Notes: generated by a model not told the origin, from the letters alone. 64,000 bases of DNA from an uncultured Candidatus Saccharibacteria bacterium (GCA_964416985.1 CAYQFS010000002.1:57155-121154), one strand, 5' to 3'; shown: positions 8,143 to 34,783, counted from the stretch's first letter. Numbers and translations: made by a program.

Positions 8143-8478
8143 ATGGCAACTATAGAAGATTTTCAGAAGTTAGATATTAGAACAGGAAAAATTATTGAAG
8201 TAAATGATTTCCCAGAAGCAAAGAAACCGGCATACAAACTGAGGATTGATTTTGGTCCTGAAATCGGAATCAAAAATTCTTCAGTCCAGATCGTTGCTCT
8301 ATATAAAAAAGAAGAACTCATTGGAAAATTAGTTCTTGGCGTGGTTAATTTTCCCCCTCGAAAAATAGGTCCATTTGAATCAGAAGTACTCACTCTTGGG
8401 GTACCTGACGGAGAAGGTAAGGTAATACTTATAACACCTAGTAAGGAAGGCGCCATGATTGGAGGAAAATTATTCTAG
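8143..8478 (+). CDS. csaA: tRNA-binding domain protein (CsaA / Trbp111 / MetRS C-terminal-like OB fold)
   Basis: MATIEDFQKLDIRTGKIIEVNDFPEAKKPAYKLRIDFG is typical of Myf-domain tRNA-binding proteins. Confidence 0.8.
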   Translation: MATIEDFQKLDIRTGKIIEVNDFPEAKKPAYKLRIDFGPEIGIKNSSVQIVALYKKEELIGKLVLGVVNFPPRKIGPFESEVLTLGVPDGEGKVILITPSKEGAMIGGKLF

Positions 8479-8493
8479 GTACAAATATAGCCC

Positions 8494-8521
8494 TTGACAC
8501 TTCCTCCCTCCATGCTATAGT
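8494..8521 (+). promoter_or_regulatory. Promoter TTGACA-N16-TGcTATAGT (extended -10)
   Basis: TTGACA at 8494-8499, a CT-rich spacer, then TGCTATAGT at 8513-8521. The -10 decamer is identical (ATGCTATAGT) to the promoter at 17135-17144. Confidence 0.5.
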
Positions 8522-8527
8522 AACCCC

Positions 8528-9022
8528 CAGAAACGAGCGGGGTTACCTCAATGGAGGTTGACTCTAATCGCTCAACAAACAAAAGCACAGACATGTACTC
8601 ATGAGCAAAAAAAGTGGAGTCCATCAAGCAGAAATCATTGAATTCGATGGCCGGTGCGGTACGGCACGCGTCACTGACCTCGATAACCGGATTGTAAAAA
8701 TCCATCGGAAATTCATGAGACATATCAGGGGTTCATGGATCTCTGACGAAGCATACCGGGGTGATACACAATTACTAATCGGCTCGAGACTTCAGATCGT
8801 TCTCATCATCGGCCACAGTGGGTGGGCGCGCGTATGGGGACTGAGTGCTGACTACCAGCCATCGGAGGCAGCAAAGCGCATAAAATCTCACTCAAATCGT
8901 GTGGCGCCATGGCACCAGACTCGGCAATCTCAATGTGTCGGAATGCGAGCCTAGGCAGAAAAATCTAATCACCAAAACCTTTTCAGGGACTGGGAGTCAC
9001 GCACTCCTGGTCCCGGTTTTTT
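8528..9022 (+). ncRNA. Candidate large structured ncRNA (about 495 nt), possibly RNase P RNA (rnpB); identity unverified
   Basis: A 580-bp interval between csaA and scpA with no convincing CDS, and local GC well above the genome background. It has its own promoter and a terminal hairpin plus U-run. Several short matches to bacterial RNase P RNA occur in the same order as in E. coli M1 RNA: TCCATCAAGCAG vs UCCAUAGGGCAG, GATGGCC, GGTGCGGTA, GGGGTTCAT, and CAGACTCGGCAATC vs CAGAACCCGGCUUAUC. The P5.1-P9 region would have to be much reduced. Confidence 0.45.
8985..9022 (+). terminator. Intrinsic terminator (GGGACTGGGAGT / ACTCCTGGTCCC stem with two G-U pairs, then a T7 run)
   Basis: The hairpin is immediately followed by GGTTTTTTT. 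It lies 40 nt upstream of the scpA promoter. Confidence 0.6.
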
Positions 9023-21438: not shown

Positions 21439-22164
21439 CTACTCAAGCTTGCCGAGAAAGACTTTTTCTAGAATTCCCGTCCCAATGAGGTGATTCGGCT
21501 CTCCATGAGCGACAACTTTACCCTTTGCAAGTATATACGCACGATTTGTTATCTCGAGAAGCGATTTGAGATTGTGTTCGACAACAACAATCGACATCTT
21601 TCGTCTATCATTTATTTCCTTTATTTTTGCAAATACCTCTTTGACAATTTTTGGAGCAAGGCCGAGTGATGGCTCGTCAAGAAGGAGGACTTTTGGATCC
21701 GTCATGAGGCCGCGGGCAATGGCAAGCATCTGTGCCTGCCCTCCGGAGAGTGTTCCTGATTTTGCCCTGAGCTTGGCCTTGAGTGCCGGGAAAAGTTCGA
21801 GTACATTTGCTATCCTTTCTTTTCTTTCTGAATTGCTCCGTATCATCCATCCTCCGATCTCAAGATTTTCTTGTACGGTAAGATGCCTGAAAACCCTTCT
21901 TCCTTGCGGCACAAAAGAAATTCCTCGATGGACAACTTCGTGCGATATTGGCTTTATCACCTGATTTTCCCAGAGCACCTTTCCTGATTCAATAGGCGCA
22001 AGGCCAAAAATTGCCTTGAGAATAGTCGACTTCCCTGCCCCATTTGGTCCCATGAGAGCAACCACTTCTCCCTCATCGATCGAGACAGAAGCACCATCAA
22101 GAGCCTTCACGCCGCCGTAGTGGACGTGAATGTCCTTGAGCTCAAGAAGAAGTTCCTTTTTCAT
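21439..22164 (-). CDS. livF: ABC transporter ATP-binding protein, LivF-like
   Basis: Walker A GPNGAGKST, signature LSGGQAQMLAIARGLM, and Walker B LLLDEPSLGLAP. Short LivF-type architecture. Confidence 0.85.
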   Translation of the reverse strand: MKKELLLELKDIHVHYGGVKALDGASVSIDEGEVVALMGPNGAGKSTILKAIFGLAPIESGKVLWENQVIKPISHEVVHRGISFVPQGRRVFRHLTVQENLEIGGWMIRSNSERKERIANVLELFPALKAKLRAKSGTLSGGQAQMLAIARGLMTDPKVLLLDEPSLGLAPKIVKEVFAKIKEINDRRKMSIVVVEHNLKSLLEITNRAYILAKGKVVAHGEPNHLIGTGILEKVFLGKLE

Positions 22165-22210
22165 AGTTATGGGATAATTATGGCACTAATGAGAGGTTGT
22201 TGCAAAATAT

Positions 22211-22537
22211 TTGGGTATTGATAGGATTATCAGAGCACTGGAGATCTGTACTATGAAACCAACACCCGAACAACAGATACGGGCTGGTGAAGAAATAGAA
22301 CTTGTAACCGTAAGTCCTTTCAAGGATAGAGTCGAGGGACTCATTCAAAAGTTACGAGAAATGAATCTCGGAATCGGTCAATCCGTACAGTTCCTTGGCA
22401 CATCTAAAGGCGACCAACTGATAGTCTACATTCCAGCTGGTCTACAAGCTGTGCAGAGCGAGGAATTGCTTACTGCTCTCATTGCTAGTCAGTTGGAATT
22501 TCGAGAATTCATTGGAACCCAAACCCGTCGAACATAA
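22211..22537 (+). CDS. Hypothetical protein (108 aa; alternative start at 22253)
   Basis: Intact ORF inserted between livF and livG on the opposite strand. No recognisable domain. A weak hairpin terminator follows. Confidence 0.4.
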   Translation: MGIDRIIRALEICTMKPTPEQQIRAGEEIELVTVSPFKDRVEGLIQKLREMNLGIGQSVQFLGTSKGDQLIVYIPAGLQAVQSEELLTALIASQLEFREFIGTQTRRT

Positions 22538-22582
22538 TCGCGCCCTCGAGGAAATCTCTTTTCCCAGGGCGTGGTTTTTATT

Positions 22583-22912
22583 TTACATCGCCCTCCCGCA
22601 TTCTTTGCAAAAGATGTTTTTCTTCTTACTTTCTATTGATGTAATGAGATTCTCGGCAAGTGCTTCTTTTCTTTTGATGTCTGCGAGCAAATGATGGGGG
22701 TTGGAAATAACATAGAAGTTTTTTCCATTTTTCTGACTGACAGAGATGAGATTGTGCTTGAGGAGAGTTTCGAGAGAGTTGTAAACAATCTGGCGATGTT
22801 TTTTTGTTTCCTTTACCAAGGGAGCAACAAAGCAAGGACCAACTTCAACGAGAGCTGTGTAGACGGCAGCGTCGTTTTGAGTAAGGCCGAGTTGGACTAG
22901 AGTGTCAATCAT
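22583..22912 (-). CDS. Small winged-HTH regulator resembling the TrmB/MarR N-terminal domain
   Basis: LVQLGLTQNDAAVYTALVEVGPCFVAPLVKETKKHRQIVYNSLETLLKHNLIS is a TrmB-like HTH. Inserted between livF and livG. Confidence 0.5.
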   Translation of the reverse strand: MIDTLVQLGLTQNDAAVYTALVEVGPCFVAPLVKETKKHRQIVYNSLETLLKHNLISVSQKNGKNFYVISNPHHLLADIKRKEALAENLITSIESKKKNIFCKECGRAM

Positions 22913-22936
22913 GGTGTGACACTATTATAGCAGAGA

Positions 22937-23689
22937 TTACTCCCCCAAATAAGCCTCCACCACATCCTTCCTCGCAAGTACCTCCTCTGGCCTCCCTTCC
23001 GCCAAAAGCTGCCCTGCATCGAGCACATAGAGATGATCTGAGAGTTCACGAATGAGATCCATATTGTGCTCAACAAGAATGACAGCTTTGCCACTCGTCC
23101 GAAGTTCCTTTAGGACAGAAACGACGACTTTGATCATTTCAGGAAAGAGTCCGGCAAACGGCTCATCAAAAAATACAATGCCAATGTCCCCTGCTCCGCT
23201 GTGAGTCATGGCAAGAACTCGGGCAATCTCAAGAAGTTTTCTCTGACCATAGGATAGATTCTTTGCAAGCTCATTTCTCTTTTCCCAAAGACCGACTTTT
23301 TTCAAAACTTCCTCGGCTTTTTCGAGATGAAAGGCACCGTGCCGTTCAAAGAGAGATTTCCAGATGCTTCGTTCGGTGAGTACTACGAGAATATTGTCGA
23401 GAACTGGCATCTGTTCAAAGAGCTTCACATCTTGGAAGGTACGGGTCATTCCATAGAAAGGAATTTCGTGCGACCTGATTTTTGAGAGACGAGTTGAGTC
23501 AAGGACGATCATCTCGCCAGTATCGATGCTGTGAATACCAGTCAAAGTATTGATGAGGGTTGATTTGCCGGAGCCATTCGGGCCGACGATAGAAGTGATC
23601 TTCCCTGCTTCAAAAGAAATGGAAAGTTTGTTGACAGCAGTAATTCCGTCAAAGTGTTTCGAGAGGTCTTTTGTGGAGAGGAGGGGCAT
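22937..23689 (-). CDS. livG: ABC transporter ATP-binding protein, LivG-like
   Basis: Walker A GPNGSGKST and the LivG-type insertion. TGTATACT lies 6 nt upstream of the chosen ATG. Confidence 0.85.
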   Translation of the reverse strand: MPLLSTKDLSKHFDGITAVNKLSISFEAGKITSIVGPNGSGKSTLINTLTGIHSIDTGEMIVLDSTRLSKIRSHEIPFYGMTRTFQDVKLFEQMPVLDNILVVLTERSIWKSLFERHGAFHLEKAEEVLKKVGLWEKRNELAKNLSYGQRKLLEIARVLAMTHSGAGDIGIVFFDEPFAGLFPEMIKVVVSVLKELRTSGKAVILVEHNMDLIRELSDHLYVLDAGQLLAEGRPEEVLARKDVVEAYLGE

Positions 23690-23925
23690 GAGAAAAGTAT
23701 ACACTTTTTGAGTAGTGGTTGCTACTTGAGTTTTTTGGTCTCTAGGAGTAGGTGTTTGTCGGCGACGTCGGTTTCTCTTTCTTTCCCGTCCTCAGCAGTC
23801 ATTTTCAACTGTCCGATTTTTGCGGAATAAGATAAGTCTAGCGGGGTACATAGTGATGTAAAGGGCAAAAACAGCCAAAAAGCGATGAAAATTTGATTTC
23901 GTCTTTATTTCGTGGGGATAACTAT

Positions 23926-25032
23926 CTATATTTCCACTGCCTTACTTCCCTTTATCTCCTTCATCATAATCGCAGATTTGTCTGCTACCACTCCCCCAAT
24001 TCCATCAAAGGTGACTTTTCCGTATGTAATCGTATCGAATGAAACTGACTTCATATAATCTGAGATATCTTGTGGATTATCCTGAAGATACTTGGCTATC
24101 ACATATACAGTATCATACGTGGTCCCGGCGCTAAACATCGGTTCATGTCCAAACTGAGCCATGAATTTTTCAGAAAATGCTTCATTGGGAGTCGCTGGGA
24201 CATAATACTTGATTCCTTCAAGCCAAGAGGTGTTGAAATTATTGTCGGTGAGATCTTGTTCAATAAATTCATCGCCATAAAATGCGATTTTCTTTCCAGA
24301 AATCTCCCGATATTTTTTGATAAAACCAAAACTCAATTTCGGATCATATGAACCAAAGAATATAGCGTCAGGTTTTTCTTCATTAATCTTAGCAATAACT
24401 GTTCTACCGTCGTTATCCGGATTTATAAGCTCCTGTCCAACAATCTGTATTCCCTGTCTCTCTGCTTCATTAACCAAAAACTCTTTAAGTTTTGAATAGT
24501 ACGAATCGTTCTGCAAAACAATGTAGAGTTTTTTAACCTCAGCTTTTTTCATTGCATCCACTGTAACCAGAGCTTTAGCCTCTGTGCGGTACCAAAGTGA
24601 AAAAACATTTTGATGATTCACGGGAGTATTAACTGACTCAATTGCTGCATCCTGAGAAATAAGGAGTATATTTTGAGGGATGATACTCTCTGACCCTTGA
24701 TATGAATCGAGCCAGGTAACCATGACAGCTTTTACGCTATCAACATTAATAAGCTTCGAGACTGCAGTGACAGAATCTTTTGAAGAACTTTTCATATCTT
24801 CAACAACAAGTTCAAAGTTCTTTCCCTGAATTCCTCCTTTTGAATTAATTTCATTGACAGCCATTTGAGCTGCCTTGAAAGATTCTTCACCCCAGGGAGC
24901 TGCGTCACCAGTAAGGGCAAGAGCAGCGCCAATCTTAATCGTCTCCTGCAGCTTTTCCTTAGTCTTATGAGAAACGACAATGAGTACTAGGACAATCAAC
25001 GCCACTACTCCCCATATTATTTTTTTATTCAT
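23926..25032 (-). CDS. ABC substrate-binding protein, type I periplasmic-binding fold (Leu/Ile/Val-binding family), N-terminal TM anchor
   Basis: The anchor MNKKIIWGVVALIVLVLIVV is followed by IKIGAALALTGDAAPWGEESFKAAQMAVNEINSKGGIQGKNFELVVEDMKSS, typical of LivK/LivJ-like proteins. Confidence 0.8.
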   Translation of the reverse strand: MNKKIIWGVVALIVLVLIVVSHKTKEKLQETIKIGAALALTGDAAPWGEESFKAAQMAVNEINSKGGIQGKNFELVVEDMKSSSKDSVTAVSKLINVDSVKAVMVTWLDSYQGSESIIPQNILLISQDAAIESVNTPVNHQNVFSLWYRTEAKALVTVDAMKKAEVKKLYIVLQNDSYYSKLKEFLVNEAERQGIQIVGQELINPDNDGRTVIAKINEEKPDAIFFGSYDPKLSFGFIKKYREISGKKIAFYGDEFIEQDLTDNNFNTSWLEGIKYYVPATPNEAFSEKFMAQFGHEPMFSAGTTYDTVYVIAKYLQDNPQDISDYMKSVSFDTITYGKVTFDGIGGVVADKSAIMMKEIKGSKAVEI

Positions 25033-25036
25033 AGTA

Positions 25037-26155
25037 TTATTTCAATTTTATTGGTATAGCTGTCTTTCCGTCAAATGTCATGAGAATCACTTCTGCCCCG
25101 CTTCGATCTCGGTCTTCATTTAATATGATTCTCCCTGAAACCCCGTCCCGTGAATCAAATGATTGTAAAACTTTTTCTACTTCTGTTGTTCCTGCCTTCC
25201 TTAAGGCATCTGCTACCATATATACTGCATCATATGTTGTATCAGCTGAGACTCCTGGAGCTATTCCATATTCTTTTGTAAAAGAATCTACAAATTCCTG
25301 CCGTGGAGGTGCATACGTAGCGTAGATAACGTCTTTAATGTACTCAGGCGCAAGCTGCGCTGGAAGACCAAATGTTACCACATCTGTAGGAAAGAGAAGT
25401 GGGACATTGAGGCCTAATTCTCGTGATTGCTTTACAAAACGCTCAAGAGGTCCTGGTGCCATAACAAAGAAAACCGCTTCGCTTGCTTCTTTCTTCATTT
25501 TTGCAATGTGTGTTTTAAAATCAGATGTATCATAAATTACAGTGACTGTTTCAGTTGTAATAATCCCCGCCTTTTGTGCGTATTCATTGAAAGCTGCAGT
25601 AAGAGAACTTTCATAAGGCCCTATTGTACTTATACTTGCTGCCTTTTTAATCCCCTTTCTTTGAAGATCTTGAACAAGAGCTTCTACTGCTATTCCATCT
25701 GAAGGCCATGTACGTAAAAGATACTGACTTTTCTTAGTAAAACCAGGAGCTCCTGCAGCAACAGTTATGGTAATCAGTTTGTTTTGATTGATTATCGGAA
25801 TAATGGGTTCTGTTTCTGATGTCCACCCCGTCAAAAGAAAAGAAACTTTATCAAAGGAAATGAGCTTACTCACTGCTGAAACAGAACTTTTCGGCTCAGT
25901 CTTATTATCCTCAGCAACCAGTTTAAGTTGAGTTCCAAGAACACCTCCAGCGGCATTAATTTCTTTTATCGCTAGTTGTGCACCCTTAAGCTGATTTTCA
26001 CCCCACGAAGCTCCAGAACCTGTGAGAGCAAAATTTCCTCCGATTACTATTGGTTCAGAGGAAGTGAGAGTGGTAGACTTCCTTGTCACACCCCAAATGA
26101 CAATGAATGTTATAACTAACGCCACTACTCCCCATATTATTTTTTTCATATCCAT
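25037..26155 (-). CDS. ABC substrate-binding protein, LivK-family paralog 2, TM-anchored
   Basis: IVIGGNFALTGSGASWGENQLKGAQLAIKEINAAGGVLGTQLKLVAEDNK. Its architecture parallels the neighbouring SBP. Confidence 0.8.
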   Translation of the reverse strand: MDMKKIIWGVVALVITFIVIWGVTRKSTTLTSSEPIVIGGNFALTGSGASWGENQLKGAQLAIKEINAAGGVLGTQLKLVAEDNKTEPKSSVSAVSKLISFDKVSFLLTGWTSETEPIIPIINQNKLITITVAAGAPGFTKKSQYLLRTWPSDGIAVEALVQDLQRKGIKKAASISTIGPYESSLTAAFNEYAQKAGIITTETVTVIYDTSDFKTHIAKMKKEASEAVFFVMAPGPLERFVKQSRELGLNVPLLFPTDVVTFGLPAQLAPEYIKDVIYATYAPPRQEFVDSFTKEYGIAPGVSADTTYDAVYMVADALRKAGTTEVEKVLQSFDSRDGVSGRIILNEDRDRSGAEVILMTFDGKTAIPIKLK

Positions 26156-26191
26156 ATTCTACCCTTCCATCCTGAACTTGCAACCCCTCGA

Positions 26192-27058
26192 TTACAACCT
26201 ATACTCCCCCACAAGCCCCTGCGGACGGTAAAGCATCAGCAGTATGAGAATGAGACCGTAGACCACTTGACGCATTTGGGCAGCGATATCTGATGGAAAC
26301 CCGACAAAACGAAGGATCTCAGGTAAGAGAATGAGGCACACAGCACCAAGAACTGCCCCTTTGTTGTTCGAAAGACCACCAAGAATGATGATGGCGAGGA
26401 TGAAGATTGACTCGGTCAAGGTAAAGGTCGAAGGATCGATGAAAGTGATGTAGCTTGCAAAAAGAGCACCTGCGACAGAAGCAAGAACTGCAGCAATGAC
26501 AAAGATTGCGAGCTTGTACCAGAGCGTATTGTAGCCAAAAATCTGGATGGCTTGCTCGTCTTCACGAATAGCCTTGAGCACTCTTCCAAAAGAAGACTGG
26601 GTAATGTAGGTGCATACTCCGAAGATCACGAGGCCAATAACGAGAGAAAGAATGAGGAAGGAGAGGTTGTCAGAAAAAGTAAAACCAAAAAGAGATGGGC
26701 GAGAAATACCGGGAATTCCCAAGGGGCCTCGGGTAAGAGATTGCCAGTTCAGGAAAATGCTGTAGATAATGATGTTAAATCCAAAGGAACCGAGAGCGTA
26801 GTAGTCGTCTTTAAATTTAGACAAAACATATCCAATAGCAAGACTCAAAGTAGCGGTGATGACCATCCCGATAATGACAGCGAGAAAAAAATTCATTCCA
26901 ACTGTTGTAAGAAGAATGGCAGTAACATAGGCGCCGATTCCGTAGAAGGCTGCCTGGGTGACCGAGAGAAGACCGGTGTACCCGACAACAAGATTTAATG
27001 AAAGGCCAAGGATGCCGTAGATACAGATGAGAATGGCGATGTGGATGAGGTATTCCAT
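26192..27058 (-). CDS. livM: ABC transporter permease, LivM-like
   Basis: Polytopic membrane protein with LivM-type segments (GYTGLLSVTQAAFYGIGAY). Confidence 0.8.
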   Translation of the reverse strand: MEYLIHIAILICIYGILGLSLNLVVGYTGLLSVTQAAFYGIGAYVTAILLTTVGMNFFLAVIIGMVITATLSLAIGYVLSKFKDDYYALGSFGFNIIIYSIFLNWQSLTRGPLGIPGISRPSLFGFTFSDNLSFLILSLVIGLVIFGVCTYITQSSFGRVLKAIREDEQAIQIFGYNTLWYKLAIFVIAAVLASVAGALFASYITFIDPSTFTLTESIFILAIIILGGLSNNKGAVLGAVCLILLPEILRFVGFPSDIAAQMRQVVYGLILILLMLYRPQGLVGEYRL

Positions 27059-27075
27059 GACCTCATAATTCTACA

Positions 27076-28200
27076 CTATTTTTGAGTATAAGGAATCTGC
27101 ACACTATTTTTAATTACATTTACAACGACAGGTATACTTTCTACAGCGTGGCCACTTGTATATTTAATCGTACTGTTTGGAGTAGTAAATTGATTCTTTT
27201 CGATATATGAAGCAACGTCAGCAGAGTTGGTCGAATGAACAATCGCCTGCGCGAGCACATAGACTGCATCAAATGTCTTATCAGCAGCTTTTGTCGGCTC
27301 AGTATTGTATGTGGTTTTATATAGAGAAGCAAAAGCTGGGCTCGGAATTTCCCAATTGAGAACCACTACACCTTCAAGAAGACTCTTGTCCTTTTCATTT
27401 GCAAAGGCATCAGTAATCCCGTTGTAGCTAATGATTGTTGGTTTGAAACCCAATTGTTTTGACTGGACAAGGAAATTTAATGGATCATCCCCTACCATGT
27501 CGAGAAATACCGCATCAACTTTTTGCGATTTGAGCTTGACAATCATCGTACGAAAATCATTTCCACCAATCTGAGTATACTCTTCATCAACAATGCCCGA
27601 CTGACCATTTTCCTTTACAACAGCATCGAGAGTTTTTGCAATTTCTTTTCCATATCCTGACTGGAAATGCACAACTGCAAGTTTATTTGGCTTTGCAACA
27701 GATAGATAGCTTTTAAGTTCACGAAGTACCTTACTAAATTCGGGATACATGCTGAATGTCTGCTCATTTGGCTCAAAAGCTCCAGGGATTCTGAATACTT
27801 CGGGAGTAATGAGAACAATTTTATTTGAGAGTGCGAGAGGAAGAAGTGGTTGGCTGGTAAAATCAAAAATACTTCCAATAACTCCCTGAACCTTGTCAAC
27901 ACTTACTAGTTTATTGTAGGCAGAGACAGAATCTTTGGCATCTGTATGATCATCCTCAAAAATAACCTGAACTTCCCTGCCCTCAATTCCTCCATTGCTA
28001 TTTATCGTCTTTACAGCGAGATCAATACCATTCTTTGCGTATTCTCCCCACGGCGCAGCAAAGCCTGTAAGAGAAACAACCGCCCCAATTTTAATAGGTT
28101 CTTTGTCAGAAATAGCCTGCTGATTAGTCTTTTTGCCAACGCCCCAAATACCGAGACCAATAATAATAACTACTACGACTGCAATGATTATTTTTTTCAT
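27076..28200 (-). CDS. ABC substrate-binding protein, LivK-family paralog 3, TM-anchored
   Basis: The start chosen is the internal Met MKKIIIAVVVVIIIGLGIWGV. The upstream extension of the supplied ORF lacks coding character. IKIGAVVSLTGFAAPWGEYAKNGIDLAVKTINSNGGIEGREVQVIFEDD. Confidence 0.75.
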   Translation of the reverse strand: MKKIIIAVVVVIIIGLGIWGVGKKTNQQAISDKEPIKIGAVVSLTGFAAPWGEYAKNGIDLAVKTINSNGGIEGREVQVIFEDDHTDAKDSVSAYNKLVSVDKVQGVIGSIFDFTSQPLLPLALSNKIVLITPEVFRIPGAFEPNEQTFSMYPEFSKVLRELKSYLSVAKPNKLAVVHFQSGYGKEIAKTLDAVVKENGQSGIVDEEYTQIGGNDFRTMIVKLKSQKVDAVFLDMVGDDPLNFLVQSKQLGFKPTIISYNGITDAFANEKDKSLLEGVVVLNWEIPSPAFASLYKTTYNTEPTKAADKTFDAVYVLAQAIVHSTNSADVASYIEKNQFTTPNSTIKYTSGHAVESIPVVVNVIKNSVQIPYTQK

Positions 28201-28221
28201 ATTGCACAAAGTATAGCGTAC

Positions 28222-28230
28222 TGGTATAAT
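28222..28230 (+). promoter_or_regulatory. Extended -10 element TGGTATAAT upstream of the TrmB-family regulator gene
   Basis: Consensus TATAAT with an upstream TG, about 55 nt before the ATG at 28286. It lies in an 85-bp divergent region shared with the SBP3 start. Confidence 0.4.
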
Positions 28231-28285
28231 TTGTCCATAGTTCGGCGAAAAGCGAATAATTAAGATACACAAGCTTATTTCATCT

Positions 28286-29059
28286 ATGAATAAAGAAATC
28301 CCAGATTTTTTTGAAATATTCGACCTCAAACCTGTACCAAAGAAGGTGCTTTTGGATATTGTTAAGCACGGAGATTCCTCTGTCGCAAATATTGCCGCAC
28401 GGCTCAATATGCCAAAATCGACCGTCTATGATGCCCTCTCCCCTCTTATCGCCAAAAGTCTCATAAATGAGTATAGTGGTGACCATGGTAAAACATTTGG
28501 AATATCAGATACTGAACAGCTTACCCGAGTCCATGCGGAGAAAATGGAGGAACTCAAAAAGGCTCACTCTTCCCTTCTTTCATTTATTCAAAACCACAAA
28601 GCAGAAAATAGTGTTGCTCAGCCAAAAATTAAATTTTATTCAGGAATCCTGGGAATCAAACAGGCATTTCGCGACACGCCATGGGTAAAGGAGCATAAGG
28701 AAACATACATGCTCTGGCCAACCACGGACATGATTGACATTGATGAAGCATTTTTTAAGTGGCACGGTACGCAGCGTTTCGCTTATAAGGTTTTCATTTA
28801 TGCAGTCGAGAAACATGCCGATCGAAAACTTCAGACTAAAAAACACGAATGGCTTAAAAATGATTCGAAAGAAAATCTTGTGAAAGTACGATATCTACCA
28901 AAAGGAACTGACGTAAAAATGAGCTACTGGATTTACGGAGATAAAGTTCTTTTTGCAAGTGGTGGTGCTGAAAAAATTGCCTTTACTGTTCATAGCAAAG
29001 AATTTTCACAGATGATGAAGATTATGTGGCAAAACACGTGGGACAATTCAAAAGAATAA
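28286..29059 (+). CDS. TrmB-family transcriptional regulator (N-terminal wHTH plus C-terminal TrmB-like domain)
   Basis: DLKPVPKKVLLDIVKHGDSSVANIAARLNMPKSTVYDALSPLIAKSLI is a TrmB-type HTH. 257 aa is a typical full length. It is divergently oriented and embedded in the liv cluster. Confidence 0.6.
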   Translation: MNKEIPDFFEIFDLKPVPKKVLLDIVKHGDSSVANIAARLNMPKSTVYDALSPLIAKSLINEYSGDHGKTFGISDTEQLTRVHAEKMEELKKAHSSLLSFIQNHKAENSVAQPKIKFYSGILGIKQAFRDTPWVKEHKETYMLWPTTDMIDIDEAFFKWHGTQRFAYKVFIYAVEKHADRKLQTKKHEWLKNDSKENLVKVRYLPKGTDVKMSYWIYGDKVLFASGGAEKIAFTVHSKEFSQMMKIMWQNTWDNSKE

Positions 29060-29926
29060 TCACTTCTTCAATATTCCCTGCGGTCTGAAGAGAAGGAAAA
29101 TAATGAGCACTCCGAATGCAATTGCATCTTTCCATTCTCCTGATATCTTCCAAATTCCAAAGTTTTCGATGAATCCGAGGAAAAATGCACCAAGTACTCC
29201 TCCATAAATATTTCCAATTCCCCCGATGATGGAAGCAATAACTCCCTTCAAGAGAAGTGAGAGGCCCATTGTGGGTTCGATTCCTGTATCAAATCCAACG
29301 AGAATTCCAGCGAGGCCTGCGATCGCAGAGCCGATGAAGAAAACTTTGCCAATAACTTTTTTTGTATCAATTCCAACAATCTTTGAAACTTCCTCATCAT
29401 CCCCTACTGCCTTAATTGCTTTTCCAAAAATTGTAAATTTAAGGACACACGCCATAATCGCCATGATGACCAAACCGGTAACAAGAATAACAAGCTGAAC
29501 TTCAGTGATAATTCCTCCTAAAATGTTAAAAACTCTCCCGGCTCCGGCACTCTGTGTCAATGTCTGAAACTGACTTGTAAAAAAGATGGCGATAATTGCC
29601 TGAAGTGCCGTGAAGGCTCCGAGCGCACCGACCAGAAGAACCATTCCTGAAGATTTTCTTTCGCGAAGTGGTGCGTAGACGAGACGATAGATGATGTAGC
29701 CAATGAGTCCGGCAATTATTACTCCGATCACAATAGATGCATAGAGATTGAAACCGAGAATTTTATAAAAATAGAAGACGGCATATCCTCCAACTGCCGT
29801 GAGTGCTCCATACCCAAGGTCAAAAAACCTCACTGTTCCGTAGATTAAATTAAAACCAAGGGCGACCATTGTGTAGATCGCTCCGGCAATAATGCTGTTG
29901 ACCACCAGTTGAGGAATGATGTCCAT
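29060..29926 (-). CDS. livH: ABC transporter permease, LivH-like
   Basis: Polytopic permease (IAGAIYTMVALGFNLIYGTVRFFDLGYGA). It lies tail-to-tail with the TrmB regulator, with a zero-bp gap. Confidence 0.8.
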   Translation of the reverse strand: MDIIPQLVVNSIIAGAIYTMVALGFNLIYGTVRFFDLGYGALTAVGGYAVFYFYKILGFNLYASIVIGVIIAGLIGYIIYRLVYAPLRERKSSGMVLLVGALGAFTALQAIIAIFFTSQFQTLTQSAGAGRVFNILGGIITEVQLVILVTGLVIMAIMACVLKFTIFGKAIKAVGDDEEVSKIVGIDTKKVIGKVFFIGSAIAGLAGILVGFDTGIEPTMGLSLLLKGVIASIIGGIGNIYGGVLGAFFLGFIENFGIWKISGEWKDAIAFGVLIIFLLFRPQGILKK

Positions 29927-29965
29927 ATGAAGATGTTGGGTTAAGTATAGCGTCTAAAATGTTGA

Positions 29966-29993
29966 TTGACAAAGAGGGTTGGTTTGGTAGACT
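29966..29993 (+). promoter_or_regulatory. Promoter-like element TTGACA-N16-TGgTAGACT containing the 12-mer TTGGTTTGGTAG
   Basis: Consensus -35 plus an extended -10. The same 12-mer in the same promoter context recurs at 53066-53077. Confidence 0.4.
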
Positions 29994-29999
29994 TTAGGT

Positions 30000-30135
30000 A
30001 TCAATCTCTGATGTAGTAAGTCCCCCTGGGCTACGGCCTCCGGACCCAAGTATTGGGCAATTGGTGCAAAGGCGTTGAGGGAAATGTAGGGGCCCCTCCA
30101 AGGTTGACTGAAGAAGACCTGTTATGGGTCTTTTT
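30000..30135 (+). ncRNA. Candidate small structured RNA (about 135 nt), or on the other strand the structured 5' leader of livH; identity unknown
   Basis: GC-rich (GTCCCCCTGGGCTACGGCCTCCGGACCCAAG ... GGGGCCCCTCC) in an AT-rich intergenic region. It ends in GAAGACC-tgttatg-GGTCTTT plus a T-run on the plus strand. No plausible CDS. The minus strand reads UUGGGUCCGGAGGCCGUAGCCCAGG, loosely reminiscent of SRP RNA domain IV. Confidence 0.3.
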
Positions 30136-30529
30136 CGTTGTGCTTTCTATCCTTTACAGAAAAGAAATGTTTTGGTCCATCATTAATTCTTCTGATAATA
30201 ACATAGACAAATTTTTCATCCATTTTTTTCCGAAGTTCCCAAAATTCTGCTACTGAGCCTGGCAAGCCTTTATTTTTAGTTCGAATATTTTTTATATAAC
30301 CCGAATATTGCAAGGTCTTCTGAATGATCAATGACGCATGTTCGAAAAGATGAATCTTTCTCATTTGCTCAGATCTTTTCCTTAATTTACCTTTTTTCAT
30401 CAAGAGATGATCGAATCCTTCTTGGGTAAAATAAACCCTTTCACCTCCAAAGGCCGGACACTCAACATATCCAATCTTTTTATACTCCTCATATCTTTCT
30501 TTTACAAATCTCTTCCAATCTTTCTCCAT
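30122..30529 (-). CDS. Hypothetical protein (135 aa), last gene of the pilus-locus transcription direction
   Basis: Intact ORF with basic/charged composition. No recognisable domain. Confidence 0.45.
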   Translation of the reverse strand: MEKDWKRFVKERYEEYKKIGYVECPAFGGERVYFTQEGFDHLLMKKGKLRKRSEQMRKIHLFEHASLIIQKTLQYSGYIKNIRTKNKGLPGSVAEFWELRKKMDEKFVYVIIRRINDGPKHFFSVKDRKHNEKDP

Positions 30530-31257: not shown

Positions 31258-32604
31258 TTAGTTTGAAAGTAATACCGCGAACCCTTTTCTATCTCCTGAG
31301 GCAAAATAGAAAGCATTTCCGTCGCAGGTCATGGCCTGGGGGAAAAATCCAAGAGGATACTCGAAAATCTTTGCGGACAAATCTCTTTTCCAGATCTGGA
31401 ATTCTTTGTTAACAAGGCGTGTAGCAACAAACAAAGTCTCCGGCTGCATGACTATTCCATAGACACCTCCGGGAATATCGTGAGAAAAAGCTGTTGCAAG
31501 GGGCGATGTGGTGGAGAAGGAAAAAAGTTCGTGATTAAGAAGAACATTAAATCCTCCTGTGGTTCTTCCAAGAGAGAGTTTTCCTTCAAAATATGAGAGG
31601 CTCTTCCCCTCCTGAGTCTCCCAGCCGGTCGGAGAAAAAGATTCAATCTGGGAAATGGCCAAAGGATTCCTCACATCAAGAATTCTCATCTGCCCTTGGT
31701 CAGAAGCTGCAACAAATGCAAGGCCATCACGGACGTATATATCGTTAATGAGGGTATCGGTCTTGAAACCTCCAAGATATTTCGGAGTAGCCGGATTTGA
31801 GACATCAATAACATTAAACTCATTTCCGTCCCATTTTTTCGTACCTATATATACGAGACCCTTGCTGTAGAAAATTGCAGTTGCTGCAGGAGCAGTCGAT
31901 GATGCAAACGGAAGGGGTAGTTTGAATTTAGACCTGAGAATTGGAGAAGACCTGTTCGAAATATCGATTATCTGAAGCTGGTTTGTACCTCCTGTATTTG
32001 AAGCAAAAATGTATGGTCCGGCAACTTCGATACGTGAAAGGCCTGGTCCAGTATCGAGAGAGGAGATGATGTGTGAAGATGTTGGATTTCGTGCATCGAC
32101 TATATATATGTCTGGGTCAGAAGCAGTTGCGGAGTCGGCCGTGAGATATACAAAACCGTTTCTTGCCTCAAGATCAGTACTCACGTTTCCAGATCCGAGA
32201 TCAACCCCCTGAGAATACAAGTGGATATTTTGCTGCTGTTCATTAAAAGCAATTCTTGGATTGCAGCTATCTCTTCCCCACCCCACCTGCGTATCAGAAG
32301 AAAGTATGGTGAGGGGCCCAATCTCAAATTGCCTCGTATCATTTCCATAGGGAGTTTCCGAAAAGCGGGTAGTGGAAGCAAAGGCATGATGAGCCAGAAA
32401 ATAATCTGCATTGTTAATTGATTTCTTGACGTCCTCGAGTGACTTCACTCCTGTTTCTCGAAGTTTCTGCATAGTTGCCGAAAGGACGAGAGCTGAAATG
32501 AGAAAAAGTGTCATGAGAGAAAAGGCAATCATTGCTTCAGGAATGAGAAAGCCCGACGTTCTCACATTTGGAAAATTATTTTGTAAGATGATTTGTAATT
32601 TCAT
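31258..32604 (-). CDS. Large pilin-like protein (about 448 aa): prepilin N-terminus (G|FLIPE) fused to an LVIVD-repeat beta-propeller domain
   Basis: RTSG|FLIPEAMIAFSLMTLFLISALVL is a prepilin peptidase motif with Glu at +5. Downstream there are at least four repeats of the LVIVD type (IYIVDARNPTSSHI, LQIIDISNRSSPIL, FNVIDVSNPATPKYL, MRILDVRNPLAISQI). Confidence 0.6.
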   Translation of the reverse strand: MKLQIILQNNFPNVRTSGFLIPEAMIAFSLMTLFLISALVLSATMQKLRETGVKSLEDVKKSINNADYFLAHHAFASTTRFSETPYGNDTRQFEIGPLTILSSDTQVGWGRDSCNPRIAFNEQQQNIHLYSQGVDLGSGNVSTDLEARNGFVYLTADSATASDPDIYIVDARNPTSSHIISSLDTGPGLSRIEVAGPYIFASNTGGTNQLQIIDISNRSSPILRSKFKLPLPFASSTAPAATAIFYSKGLVYIGTKKWDGNEFNVIDVSNPATPKYLGGFKTDTLINDIYVRDGLAFVAASDQGQMRILDVRNPLAISQIESFSPTGWETQEGKSLSYFEGKLSLGRTTGGFNVLLNHELFSFSTTSPLATAFSHDIPGGVYGIVMQPETLFVATRLVNKEFQIWKRDLSAKIFEYPLGFFPQAMTCDGNAFYFASGDRKGFAVLLSN

Positions 32605-33616
32605 AAATTGGAAGAATAATGGAGAGAGCGACCGAGCCCACAATGAGCCCCATCCCGATCATGAGCACAGGTTCGATCACTGTTGAAAGCTGCTTTATAA
32701 AATTATCGAGCTCCTGCTCGTACATTTTTGAAATATGAGTAAGCATCGAAGAAAGAGAGCCGGTTCTCTCCCCAATAAAAAGCATACTCGGGACAAGTTC
32801 AGGAAAAATCTGAGGAGAAGATTTCATTGACTGAGACAGAGAAACGCCTTTGATAACTTCTTCATGGCAACTCTGCCATCCTGCGCGGTACGGTTCATAC
32901 GAAGGAGACCCAGCCGCCTGTCCGAGGATAGATGAGAGCGACTGACCATTTTCAAGGAGCACTCCCATTGATCGAAGTGAGGTACTCACGAAGTACTTTT
33001 TAATACTTTCTCCGACAACAGGAATTCGTAAAAATAATTTTTGAAAAAACCATCGAAAAGCTGTGTTCTTCTTGTAAAGAATTTGAAAAATAATGAGAAG
33101 TAGAATTCCTGAACAGCAAACCCACAAACCATACCGAAGCGAGAAAAGATAGAGAGCCCTCACTGCTCGTGTAAGAAACGGTAACTTTATATTCATACTT
33201 GAAAAAAGAGGAATGATTTTTGGAAAAATATACATAACTAGAAAAAGGGTCATAGCAACGGTCGCAGTGGCAATGAAAGACGGATACATGAGCGCCCCAA
33301 GCATCTTTTTCTTGAGTTCCCCTCCTTTTTCCATTACGTGGTAGGCCTGACGAAGAGAGAGCGCAAGCGTCCCCGAGCTTTCTCCGTTTTTTATCATTGA
33401 AACAAGAGTCGGATCAAATCGGACTTTGGTAAGGGTCATACTTTTTGAAAATGAAACTCCTTTTTCGACGCTATCCCTCATGATTCCCAAAATTCTTTTG
33501 CCTTTCTTTGATTTTTCCATATTGAAAATAATAGAAAGAGTTTCCCCAAGAGAAATTCCCGATTCGATAAGTACCGCCGATCTGTGAATGAAGGCGAGTT
33601 GTTCTTTTTTATTCAT
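32576..33616 (-). CDS. pilC: Type IV pilus / type II secretion platform protein (PilC/GspF family)
   Basis: Two GspF-type repeats with 3 TM segments (SLRQAYHVMEKGGEL ..., EPVLMIGMGLIVGSVALSIILPIYEI). Confidence 0.85.
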   Translation of the reverse strand: MNKKEQLAFIHRSAVLIESGISLGETLSIIFNMEKSKKGKRILGIMRDSVEKGVSFSKSMTLTKVRFDPTLVSMIKNGESSGTLALSLRQAYHVMEKGGELKKKMLGALMYPSFIATATVAMTLFLVMYIFPKIIPLFSSMNIKLPFLTRAVRALYLFSLRYGLWVCCSGILLLIIFQILYKKNTAFRWFFQKLFLRIPVVGESIKKYFVSTSLRSMGVLLENGQSLSSILGQAAGSPSYEPYRAGWQSCHEEVIKGVSLSQSMKSSPQIFPELVPSMLFIGERTGSLSSMLTHISKMYEQELDNFIKQLSTVIEPVLMIGMGLIVGSVALSIILPIYEITNHLTK

Positions 33617-33628
33617 GACTTTGTTTAA

Positions 33629-34783
33629 TTATTCATGCAGGACTCTCAAAACTTCTTCTTTTGTCGTAATCCCTCTTTCGACTTTTTCCATTCCATCCTC
33701 GTACATCGTCATCATCCCGGAAACTTTTGCATACCTGCCAATTTCCGAAAGTGAAATACGAGACATAATGTACTTTCTCATTTCCTCATCGATGACAAGA
33801 GTCTCAGCAACAACCACCCTTCCTTTGTACCCAGATTTTCCACACAATGTACAACCAATTCCCTTGCACTCCTGACACACTTTTCGAACAAGCCTCTGGG
33901 CAATAACGAGCGAGATAGTCGATGCCACAAGGTAGGGATCAACCCCCATATCAATGAGGCGTGGAATAGCCCCAAGAGCCGAATTTGTATGAAGTGTCGA
34001 AAGTAAAAGGTGACCGGTGAGAGAAATATTTGTAGCGATCTGAGCAGTTTCAGTGTCTCGTATTTCTCCGACCATGATGATGTCAGGGTCCTGCCGTACG
34101 ATGGAGCGCAGACCATTTGCAAATGTAATGCCATGACGCTCCCTAATCTGGATCTGGCGAATTCCCGATATCGCGTATTCGATCGGATCCTCTAGAGTCA
34201 CGATCGACTGCTCTTCCCTTGCAAGAAGCTTTACGAGTGTATAAAGAGACGAAGTTTTTCCTGAACCAGTAGGACCGGTAACAAGAATCATTCCCTGGTG
34301 ATAACCAAGGCTCCGGAGAATTCTTTCTTCGTCATGTTCTGAAAAGCCAAGTTTTGAAAGCGTTGGCTCGTCCCGATTTCCCACAAGAAGCCTCAGAACT
34401 GCATTTTCTCCGTAATGTGTTGGGACAATTGACACTCGAACATCACATTCACAAATCTCCTGAGAAAACCTGAACCTTCCGTCTTGTGGTACAAAATGAA
34501 CATCAGTCCGTAGCCCAGCCAGTATTTTTATTCGTGCAATGAGTTCCTCATGAACATCCATATCGAGAGTATCCATATATATGAGTACCCCATCAATCCT
34601 AAATCGAATGATCACTCCCTCTGGACTTGGATCTATGTGAATATCCGAAGCTGATCGGTGATAGCCGAACATGATGAGTGAATCAGCAAGCTCCACAATC
34701 GACTGAATATCATGAAGCATCCGCTCATTATGTATGATGTCGTATATCTTTTCTTTCATAGCTCGAGGATACCAGGTGAGCAA
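33629..34783 (-). CDS. pilB: Type IV pilus assembly ATPase, PilB/GspE family (short form lacking the N1 domain; C-terminal tetracysteine motif)
   Basis: Walker A VTGPTGSGKTSS, Asp box, Walker B DPDIIMVGEIRD, His box LSTLHTNSA, and CQECKG ... CTLCGKSG zinc motif. The last distinguishes PilB/GspE from PilT. Confidence 0.85.
   Translation of the reverse strand: MLTWYPRAMKEKIYDIIHNERMLHDIQSIVELADSLIMFGYHRSASDIHIDPSPEGVIIRFRIDGVLIYMDTLDMDVHEELIARIKILAGLRTDVHFVPQDGRFRFSQEICECDVRVSIVPTHYGENAVLRLLVGNRDEPTLSKLGFSEHDEERILRSLGYHQGMILVTGPTGSGKTSSLYTLVKLLAREEQSIVTLEDPIEYAISGIRQIQIRERHGITFANGLRSIVRQDPDIIMVGEIRDTETAQIATNISLTGHLLLSTLHTNSALGAIPRLIDMGVDPYLVASTISLVIAQRLVRKVCQECKGIGCTLCGKSGYKGRVVVAETLVIDEEMRKYIMSRISLSEIGRYAKVSGMMTMYEDGMEKVERGITTKEEVLRVLHE

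Follow-up and report, generated by a model that had tools for sequence, protein, structure and literature searches.

In archaea, the gene for the regulator TrmB lies in an ATP-binding cassette (ABC) transporter cluster, and its product binds a palindrome at the promoter of the binding-protein gene (PMC4158304). Single-domain TrmB proteins have also been described in archaea, as thiol-based regulators (bioRxiv 10.1101/2022.03.05.483106). Here we describe a bacterial locus that combines features of this kind, in a 64-kb stretch of DNA from an uncultured Candidatus Saccharibacteria bacterium (CAYQFS010000002.1:57155-121154), the whole of which is referred to below as the window. The interval 21439-29926 encodes an importer of the Liv type with three substrate-binding proteins (SBP1, SBP2 and SBP3), and the gene for a TrmBL2-like regulator of 257 amino acids (aa) stands back to back with the SBP3 gene. 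The two genes share overlapping promoter-like sites and an 18-nt candidate operator that accompanies nearly every ortholog of the regulator. On these grounds we propose that the protein is probably an autoregulated one-component regulator controlling the transcription unit led by SBP3.

The genomes of Patescibacteria are very small and encode few transporters and regulators, and to our knowledge almost nothing has been reported on gene control in these organisms. A survey of the group counted about three ABC-transporter proteins per genome (PMC7137472). Our literature searches for TrmB in Patescibacteria, or for the importer architecture described below, found nothing relevant.

Results

Relatives of the regulator were surveyed in one genome per species, giving 50 loci in which all open reading frames (ORFs) were classified against the window proteins. 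In 25 species-level loci an SBP3 ortholog is the immediate upstream, divergent neighbour of the regulator gene, and these loci include 23 of the 24 in which the regulator is at least 49% identical to that of the window and upstream sequence is present. It recurs in 11 metagenome contigs, and the contexts that were looked up show it at regulator identities of 80%, 76% and 64% (L058, L003 and L004). The partner is a particular paralog: orthologs are 41-66% identical to SBP3, while other SBP paralogs reach 21-32% to any window SBP. The downstream neighbour of the regulator is variable, and may be livH, livM or another SBP gene. In relatives, as many as 11 SBP genes can lie within 20 kb, and a cluster can hold as many as five genes for TrmB-like regulators (L012, L020 and L023 have 10-11 SBP genes and up to 5 such regulators in 20 kb). 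Of the 23 paralogous regulators of this kind in relatives, 20 are also transcribed divergently from a neighbouring SBP gene. By this comparison the conserved unit is the back-to-back regulator-SBP pair, of which the window holds one complete example. A preliminary description of the locus had linked TrmB-type regulators to the liv importer. The context look-ups and the locus survey confirm that this linkage is conserved in relatives, with a narrower partner: it is the divergent SBP3 gene (25 loci) and not the importer as a whole, and distant orthologs keep the promoter element described below without liv genes.

The regulator gene (28286-29059, plus strand) encodes a winged helix-turn-helix (wHTH) domain of family PF01978, a long helix and a phospholipase D (PLD)-like C-terminal domain. 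When its AlphaFold model (predicted local distance difference test score, pLDDT, 90.6) was searched with Foldseek, full-length TrmBL2 was the top match (E 2e-12), at about 15% sequence identity, and the TrmB effector domain 2f5t was matched at 8e-5. In the recognition helix, the pair Y48-D49 is invariant in 38 family members and corresponds to Y50-D51, listed as the DNA-contacting pair for both TrmB and TrmBL2 (PMC4158304 Table 1). The family comprises at least 130 proteins at 45-80% identity and is restricted to Patescibacteria; in the alignment its C-terminal half is more conserved than the wHTH domain. The 257-aa protein gave no match to PF11495, the effector-binding domain of which the sugar-binding subdomain is a part, at an E-value of 0.01 or below, and its model ends after the PLD-like subdomain, aligning to 124-152 of the 233 residues of the TrmB sugar-binding domain structure. 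The catalytic HxK(x)4D (HKD) motif of PLD/Nuc nucleases is also absent from the protein. On this model it is a member of the TrmB family by its DNA-binding domain and TrmBL2-like by its architecture. Both regulators of the cluster had been called TrmB-type in the preliminary description, and hidden Markov models agree (31.5 bits for the 257-aa protein and 40.7 for the 109-aa protein discussed below, against a cut-off of 25.6), as does the fold of the 257-aa protein. The same description thought a sugar-responsive TrmB beside an amino-acid importer unusual, a point made moot by the match to TrmBL2: the protein has no sugar-binding subdomain, and therefore neither an expectation of sugar sensing nor the paradox of a sugar regulator applies to it.

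A promoter scan that scored -35 and -10 boxes out of 12 yielded seven sites at the top score of 10, two of which fall in the 85-bp spacer between SBP3 and the regulator (28201-28285). The SBP3 site (28210-28237, minus strand) reads TGGACA, 16 nt, TATACT, and the regulator site (28202-28230, plus strand) reads TTGCAC/TGCACA and then TGG-TATAAT, with a TG extension; counted from TGCACA (28203-28230) the spacing is 16 nt. They overlap back to back within about 36 bp. Across about 40 loci, TAnnnT and T(G/A)T(A/C)(C/T)A boxes are positionally conserved on the SBP3 side, and the element described next is preceded, at a constant interval of about 10 nt, by a TGnTAnnnT box. The -10 box of SBP3 ends 9 nt before its ATG, and therefore the SBP3 mRNA would be nearly leaderless.

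The same spacer holds the candidate operator, an 18-nt element of the form TTCG-N-CGAA-NNN-CGAATA (TTCGGCGAAAAGCGAATA, 28241-28258) that begins ten bases downstream of the plus-strand -10 box. Including the preceding base it also reads as an inverted repeat, ATTCG-N8-CGAAT (28240-28258), the first base being A/G. The element spans about +4 to +21 relative to the regulator promoter, and on the SBP3 side it immediately precedes the -35 box. Allowing up to 3 mismatches, no other copy occurs in the window (0.05 expected), and a degenerate pattern finds the same site only. Orthologs down to about 41% identity, whether liv-linked or not, nearly all have exactly one copy at the promoter, always in the same orientation and with 0-4 mismatches; the exceptions are L030, where too little DNA is available upstream, and L057, where it was found by hand. 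At homologs of 34% identity or less it was not found. An alignment of 41 loci shows invariant TTCG, CGAA and CGAA(TA) tetrads and variable bases at position 5 and at 10-12. The element keeps a constant spacing to the -10 box, while its position relative to the start codon ranges between 3 and about 120 nt upstream; in about a third of the loci it falls inside the annotated coding sequence and is translated as MIRRKANN, so that the N-terminal MIRRKANN of many family proteins (P0016, P0033, P0040, P0052, P0054 and others) is the translated motif, ATG-ATTCGGCGAAAAGCGAATAA. Loci with this extension include L010, L012, L015, L017, L019 and L020, and in them the start codon coincides with the predicted transcription start.

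The exact 18-mer has 37 matches in metagenomes. Fifteen of them have a Patescibacteria-type promoter context, and all 15 adjoin an ortholog of the regulator (13 by tblastn, two cut by contig ends). The remaining 22 lie in unrelated, mostly high-GC contigs, a number close to the chance estimate if the collection is assumed to hold roughly 10^11-10^12 bases, and additional regulon sites in the metagenomes were rejected on this basis. Inspected paralogous regulators carry their own, different and longer palindromes between the -10 box and the ATG: ACTCTCC-N7-GGAGAGT, CTGTCA-N6-TGACAG, TTTTGTTCGT-N-AGTGACAAAA and ATGTCGAA-N5-TTCGACAT. The element and the pattern among paralogs have the appearance expected of autoregulatory operators for wHTH dimers that have diverged, and we treat all of these as candidate sites. 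Of the two intergenic regions in which the preliminary description had suggested looking for operators, 28201-28285 holds this palindrome-like element, and 29927-29965 holds a promoter-like site and no operator-like palindrome. Motif searches of the window found no second operator upstream of livH, livG, SBP1 or livF. One locus that is not liv-linked (L032) has a second, near-identical module of promoter and operator (908-925 and 2650-2667), which precedes the module of the regulator itself by 1.7 kb; within the next 100 codons this extra module has no ORF, and it could be the driver of a small RNA or a relic.

The constant orientation of the element and its fixed distance to the predicted transcription start would also suit a function in RNA, in which the 18 nt would form a 5'-terminal hairpin (AUUCG/CGAAU) in the regulator mRNA and control its stability or translation. 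The minimum-energy fold of the leader does include this 5-bp hairpin; however, the fold is no better than those of shuffled sequences (z = -0.33; 69 of 200 shuffles fold at least as well), the hairpin arms never vary and so provide no covariation in favour of pairing, and the element lies within coding sequence in about a third of loci. Rfam gave no match in the window, and in the paralogs the equivalent position near the promoter is taken by other palindromes, longer and perfect, as would be seen for operators of wHTH dimers. We consider the hairpin explanation improbable, and prefer to see the element as a DNA site for the regulator.

The resemblance to TrmBL2 raises a different possibility, namely that the 257-aa protein is a general nucleoid-associated protein whose location among liv genes has no regulatory meaning. 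Its best structural match shares its length, its domain order and the lack of a sugar-binding subdomain, and binds DNA non-specifically (PMC4158304). Such a role sits poorly with divergent pairing to one particular SBP ortholog in 25 genomes while other neighbours change, and with a near-invariant, family-specific motif at the regulator promoter. Each genome, moreover, encodes several paralogs, which differ from one another in palindrome and in SBP partner, unlike a single abundant chromatin protein. A nucleoid role is in our judgement highly improbable, and a site-specific regulator accounts better for the locus.

We therefore favour, with somewhat more confidence than doubt, a scheme in which the 257-aa protein is predicted to be an autoregulated one-component regulator of the SBP3-led transcription unit. 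A dimer of the protein would bind ATTCG-N8-CGAAT at 28240-28258, just downstream of the regulator's own transcription start, and so block its own transcription; autorepression is what a site at about +4 to +21 of the promoter leads one to expect. As the site also abuts the SBP3 -35 box, binding would set the output of an SBP3-livM-SBP2-SBP1 unit, either through contact with RNA polymerase or through relief of competition between the overlapping promoters. The strongly conserved PLD-like C-terminal domain would be the probable signal input. Control of the importer as a whole would run through the unit encoding LivM and the receptors, because livH, livG with the 109-aa wHTH gene, and livF have -10-like boxes of their own and no motif. 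The comparisons show the gene families, a predicted fold, the conserved pairing, the conservation and placement of the motif and a promoter-like geometry; binding to the motif, whether the effect is activation or repression, the nature of the ligand and how far each transcription unit extends are points that we at most infer.

Several observations weigh against this scheme. Since the window holds no second site, control of livH, livG and livF would be indirect or absent. The arms of the inverted repeat are short (5 bp) and 13 bp apart from centre to centre, a wider half-site spacing than in the Thermococcales glycolytic motif, which we take to be 11 bp, and the element is asymmetric, with a third CGAA between the arms. 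The amino-acid clamp residues of LivJ were not found in SBP3, the presumed target, in an alignment to LivJ at about 25% identity. TrmBL2, the closest structural match of the regulator, is a non-specific chromatin protein without a known ligand (PMC4158304). Finally, orthologs at 41-47% identity, and the one in L031 (51%), keep the motif next to unrelated upstream genes; what the motif proves is thus a link to the promoter of the regulator itself, and not to SBP3. One such ortholog, at 47% identity, adjoins uvrB and thyX instead of liv genes. A common partner gene for the orthologs that are not liv-linked was considered and rejected, their upstream genes being unrelated to one another.

This persistence of the motif with the regulator, even where no SBP gene is adjacent, is what would be seen if the protein regulated only itself, with SBP3 expressed constitutively from a promoter of its own and its adjacency a product of inherited or transferred regulator-SBP cassettes. 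The number and order of SBP-regulator pairs also vary widely among relatives, suggesting gain and loss of cassettes. On the other hand, with promoters that overlap within about 36 bp and a motif that abuts the SBP3 -35 box, occupancy at one promoter is very unlikely to be neutral for the other, and the divergent pairing, which persists in 25 + 20 cases, speaks for a functional link. We regard autoregulation alone as rather unlikely, and retain joint control of the regulator and SBP3 promoters as the preferred account.

All three binding proteins are encoded on the minus strand and match PF13458 (Peripla_BP_6) at 139-170 bits: SBP1 (23926-25032; 3.5e-40), a type I (cluster B) binding protein carrying a hydrophobic anchor or signal at its N-terminus; SBP2 (25037-26155; 1.1e-49), a type I paralog; and SBP3 (27076-28200; 1.3e-45), of 374 aa from the ATG at 28200. 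They are 30-32% identical to one another. The top matches in the PDB are LivJ 1z15 and 4gnr for SBP1 and 4gnr for SBP2, and the nearest solved structures for all three are LivJ, LivK, 4gnr and other amino-acid binders, with urea binders far lower. The preliminary description had named clustering with urea or amide binders as grounds for abandoning its assignment, and the proteins in fact lie nearer to LivJ/LivK. A urea or amide transporter was rejected for the cluster, the SBPs scoring better against LivJ-type than against UrtA models; the scores of the permeases and ATPases do not discriminate between Liv and Urt (urea) models.

Pockets were compared by aligning 110 SBPs with LivJ, at an identity of about 25% that leaves single pocket positions uncertain. 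In LivJ, the residues contacting the alpha-amino and alpha-carboxylate groups are presumably S79, T102, Y202 and E226. At these positions SBP3 itself has D, R or F, V, and N in this alignment at about 25% identity. In SBP3 and its 25 orthologs, Asp stands at S79 (25/25), Asn-Phe-Arg at 100-102 (22/25), Val or Leu at Y202, and Asn or Thr at E226. SBP1 keeps Y150, Y202 and E226 of LivJ without S79 and T102, and SBP2 keeps no clamp residue except T at position 79; most other paralogs have Ser/Thr at position 79 and Asp/Glu at 226. The paralogs differ at nearly every pocket position, and this divergence fits different ligands. By its aligned pocket SBP3 is not a canonical Leu/Ile/Val binder, and the label of an amino-acid importer given in the preliminary description is not established for the SBP3 receptor, whose pocket lacks the LivJ clamp for the alpha-amino and alpha-carboxylate groups.

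The N-termini of SBP1-3 read M(N/D)KK, followed by 17-19 uncharged residues and a polar or basic linker, with no Cys. The same design is found in 105 of 105 relatives' SBP paralogs with an intact N-terminus (median 18 uncharged residues). A lipobox, [LVI][ASTVI][GAS]C, is absent from the three window SBPs, and a lipobox-like string occurs in one of the 105 paralogs. Because the design is shared throughout and such a string is found only once, the lack of lipoprotein anchoring is, on present comparisons, a family trait. The hydrophobic stretch is followed by small residues (VVS, WGV and GVG), which do not exclude signal peptidase I. The earlier picture of an uncleaved transmembrane helix without a lipobox thus stands, family-wide, for the lipobox, and not for the word uncleaved. 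The lack of a lipoprotein pathway and scavenging from a host, which that description also suggested, are possibilities only.

The remaining genes of the interval complete the importer. Its minus strand carries livF, the 109-aa wHTH gene, livG, SBP1, SBP2, livM, SBP3 and livH, and its plus strand the 108-aa ORF and the 257-aa regulator gene, whose stop abuts that of livH tail to tail, with a 0-bp gap at 29059/29060. The livF-type ABC ATPase (21439-22164, minus strand; 241 aa; PF00005) has UrtE and LivF as top NCBIfam matches, each under the equivalog cut-off. The livG-type ATPase (22937-23704, minus strand; PF00005 and PF12399) has 255 aa from a GTG, and in this 255-aa protein the C-terminal tail PF12399 (BCA_ABC_TP_C) scores 30.4 bits against a cut-off of 25.5. 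Its start is probably the ATG at 23689, giving 250 aa, because gene callers report 250 aa on identical contigs and a TATACT box lies 6 nt upstream. The two permeases, of 288 aa each and encoded on the minus strand, match PF02653 with E-values of 3.6e-43 and 1.9e-47; the livM-type protein (26192-27058) has LivM as its top NCBIfam match, and the livH-type protein (29060-29926) has UrtB and LivH. Two PF02653 permeases, two PF00005 ATPases, a LivG tail and PF13458 binding proteins are the features that define the hydrophobic amino acid transporter (HAAT)/Liv type, and by subunit composition the transporter is a HAAT-family member, with substrates that are only predicted. The best reading of these genes is one translocator (LivH, LivM, LivG and LivF) that serves three divergent, surface-anchored binding proteins.

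Pfam, NCBIfam and ORF positions thus bear out the original gene list and coordinates, including the 0-bp junction, and PF02653, PF00005, PF12399 and PF13458 support a Liv-type importer with three paralogous binding proteins. Of the two interruptions by opposite-strand genes that had been described, the 108-aa ORF and the 257-aa regulator are indeed opposed, and the 109-aa wHTH gene is not, as it lies on the minus strand. The single operon that had been assumed gives way to what are probably several short transcription units, because most genes have their own -10-like box near the ATG. In the start regions between 21439 and 30529, most genes lack a Shine-Dalgarno sequence and have such a box 5-20 nt ahead of the ATG, an indication that mRNAs with no leader, or a very short one, are common in this genome. 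The boxes include CATAAT 12 nt before the ATG of livF, TATACT 6 nt before that of livG (ATG 23689), TATTAT 5 nt before that of cysS, and TGCTATAAT 11 nt before that of the 109-aa wHTH gene; livH has a promoter-like site of TTGTCA, 17 nt, TATACT (29944-29972, minus strand), another 10/12 match. The gaps SBP3-livM, livM-SBP2 and SBP2-SBP1 are 17, 36 and 4 bp.

The 109-aa protein (22583-22912, minus strand; PF01978) has four homologs at 61-87% identity, all of exactly 109 aa, and both homologs with retrieved context lie in liv clusters on the liv strand. The family has an invariant C27 and a C-terminal F-C102-x-x-C105-G, and its model consists of the wHTH domain, a long helix (72-98) and a Cys knuckle, with the CxxC following the dimerisation helix. 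At the position of the recognition-helix pair it has Y44-N45, compared with Y51-N52 in MalR (PMC4158304). By these comparisons it is a real, conserved gene, predicted to encode a separate single-domain TrmB-type regulator, and with its three invariant Cys it may sense thiol redox state or a metal; its resemblance to the archaeal thiol-based proteins is an analogy. Weak tblastn extensions past the stop had hinted at a truncated pseudogene of a 250-aa regulator, and the downstream frame contains 4 stops; this was rejected, the homologs all having 109 aa with a C-terminal CxxC.

For the 108-aa ORF (22211-22537, plus strand; 94 aa from 22253 according to gene callers), gene status is uncertain. 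It belongs to no family, a family search giving only a sub-threshold FeoA match, and among 1.84 billion representatives it has one real homolog, of 94 aa at 84% identity, weak matches to repeat proteins being uninformative. It shows no similarity to small ORFs in relatives' liv clusters, and with this and a single close homolog it could be assigned neither as a remnant nor as a conserved companion gene. The livF-livG part of the cluster, in which it lies, is evolutionarily fluid by comparison with L058, the closest long relative, because the corresponding interval there holds two SBP genes and a 255-aa TrmB-like regulator.

By its homologs, which derive from Patescibacteria metagenome-assembled genomes labelled Paceibacteria, Taylorbacteria or Nomurabacteria, the organism belongs to the Patescibacteria/Paceibacteria. 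The cluster is flanked by housekeeping and type IV pilus genes; downstream, 31258-34783 (minus strand) carries type IV pilus/type II secretion genes (T2SSF, T2SSE) and a gene for a 461-aa LVIVD-repeat protein. Neither tRNA genes nor Rfam families were matched in the window. Directly upstream of livH lies a gene for a 135-aa protein without a Pfam family (30122-30529, minus strand), which shares the motif VECPAFGGExVYFT..GFxHL with its homologs. One of these is also directly upstream of livH (L062, 41-400) and another within a liv cluster (L004, 19028-19369), and the gene may be a companion of the liv cluster. Relatives' liv clusters also contain toxin-type genes (PemK; Fic with RhuM) at 8336-8776 and 12143-12562 in L004 and at 3131-4138 in L062, which hints that liv clusters are insertion hot spots.

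Discussion

What appears to be new in this locus is its setting in Patescibacteria, the Liv-type partner, and the modular regulator-SBP pairs, each with a private candidate palindrome. A broader picture, which we put forward as a possibility that falls short of probable, is that Paceibacteria run one Liv-type translocator as a hub for 3 to at least 11 surface-anchored receptors, many of them switched individually by a dedicated back-to-back TrmBL2-like sensor-regulator with its own palindrome. The PLD-like domain would then be a type of ligand sensor not yet described for the TrmB family. If true, this would be the first case in the Candidate Phyla Radiation of a transcription factor defined together with its operator and its targets, and would represent a modular route by which a minimal genome could widen and tune its nutrient scavenging. 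In these small genomes a large share of the limited transport and regulatory capacity goes to one importer with many receptors and several dedicated regulators.

The regulator, its 18-nt site and the two overlapping promoters form a compact unit that can be studied in vitro, without culturing the organism. The ligands of SBP3 and of the regulator in turn offer a route to the nutrients that these bacteria take from their surroundings or hosts.

Among characterised transporters, the closest counterpart is the E. coli LivJ/LivK-LivHMGF system (HAAT; Transporter Classification 3.A.1.4), which likewise has two PF02653 permeases, two ATPases of which one carries PF12399, and more than one PF13458 binding protein per translocator; LivJ and LivK are among the best structure matches of all the SBPs described here. 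Sequence identity is nevertheless low, NCBIfam scores are far below the equivalog cut-offs, and UrtB/UrtD/UrtE score about as well as LivH/LivG/LivF. The present SBPs have an N-terminal hydrophobic anchor and not a typical periplasmic signal peptide, and LivM has 288 aa without a long N-terminal extension. Genes on the opposite strand break up the cluster, promoter-like sites belong to individual genes, and the LivJ clamp residues are missing in SBP3 and only partly kept in SBP1 and SBP2. Relatives' loci, with up to 11 SBP paralogs in 20 kb, depart further still from the E. coli arrangement.

Parallels exist for the regulators too. The 109-aa protein resembles the single-domain TrmB thiol regulators of the Haloferax OxsR type and MreA in consisting of a TrmB wHTH domain, one helix and conserved Cys (here C27 and C102-x-x-C105), a likeness at the level of the shared PF01978 domain. 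The 257-aa regulator appears to be organised like divergent, autoregulated activators of the LysR type, in that it is divergent from its presumed target and a site in the shared region could repress one promoter and control the other. The family is unrelated, however, with no LysR substrate-binding domain, and a single short site takes the place of a pair of regulatory and activation sites.

TrmBL2 (TK0471/PF0496), an archaeal chromatin protein, is the best full-length structural match (264 against 257 aa), with the same domain order and no sugar-binding subdomain. TrmBL2 coats DNA non-specifically as a single abundant protein, whereas the regulators described here occur as several paralogs, each with an SBP gene and a specific palindrome.

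The archaeal TrmB of the Thermococcus/Pyrococcus trehalose-maltose system shares with the 257-aa protein a PF01978 wHTH domain with a Tyr-Asp pair, a long dimerisation helix and a PLD-like domain. It differs in being 338 aa long against 257 aa, the shorter protein having no PF11495 match and no C-terminal sugar-binding subdomain. The host is here bacterial, so that the regulator would act with sigma-70-type promoters, and the transporter is of the Liv and not the sugar type. The motifs are also different, TTCG-N-CGAA-NNN-CGAA compared with TACT-N3-AGTA (PMC4158304). In both cases the gene lies within an ABC-importer cluster and the promoter of a binding-protein gene has a palindromic site, here a candidate, and by this genomic evidence the regulator behaves like archaeal TrmB.

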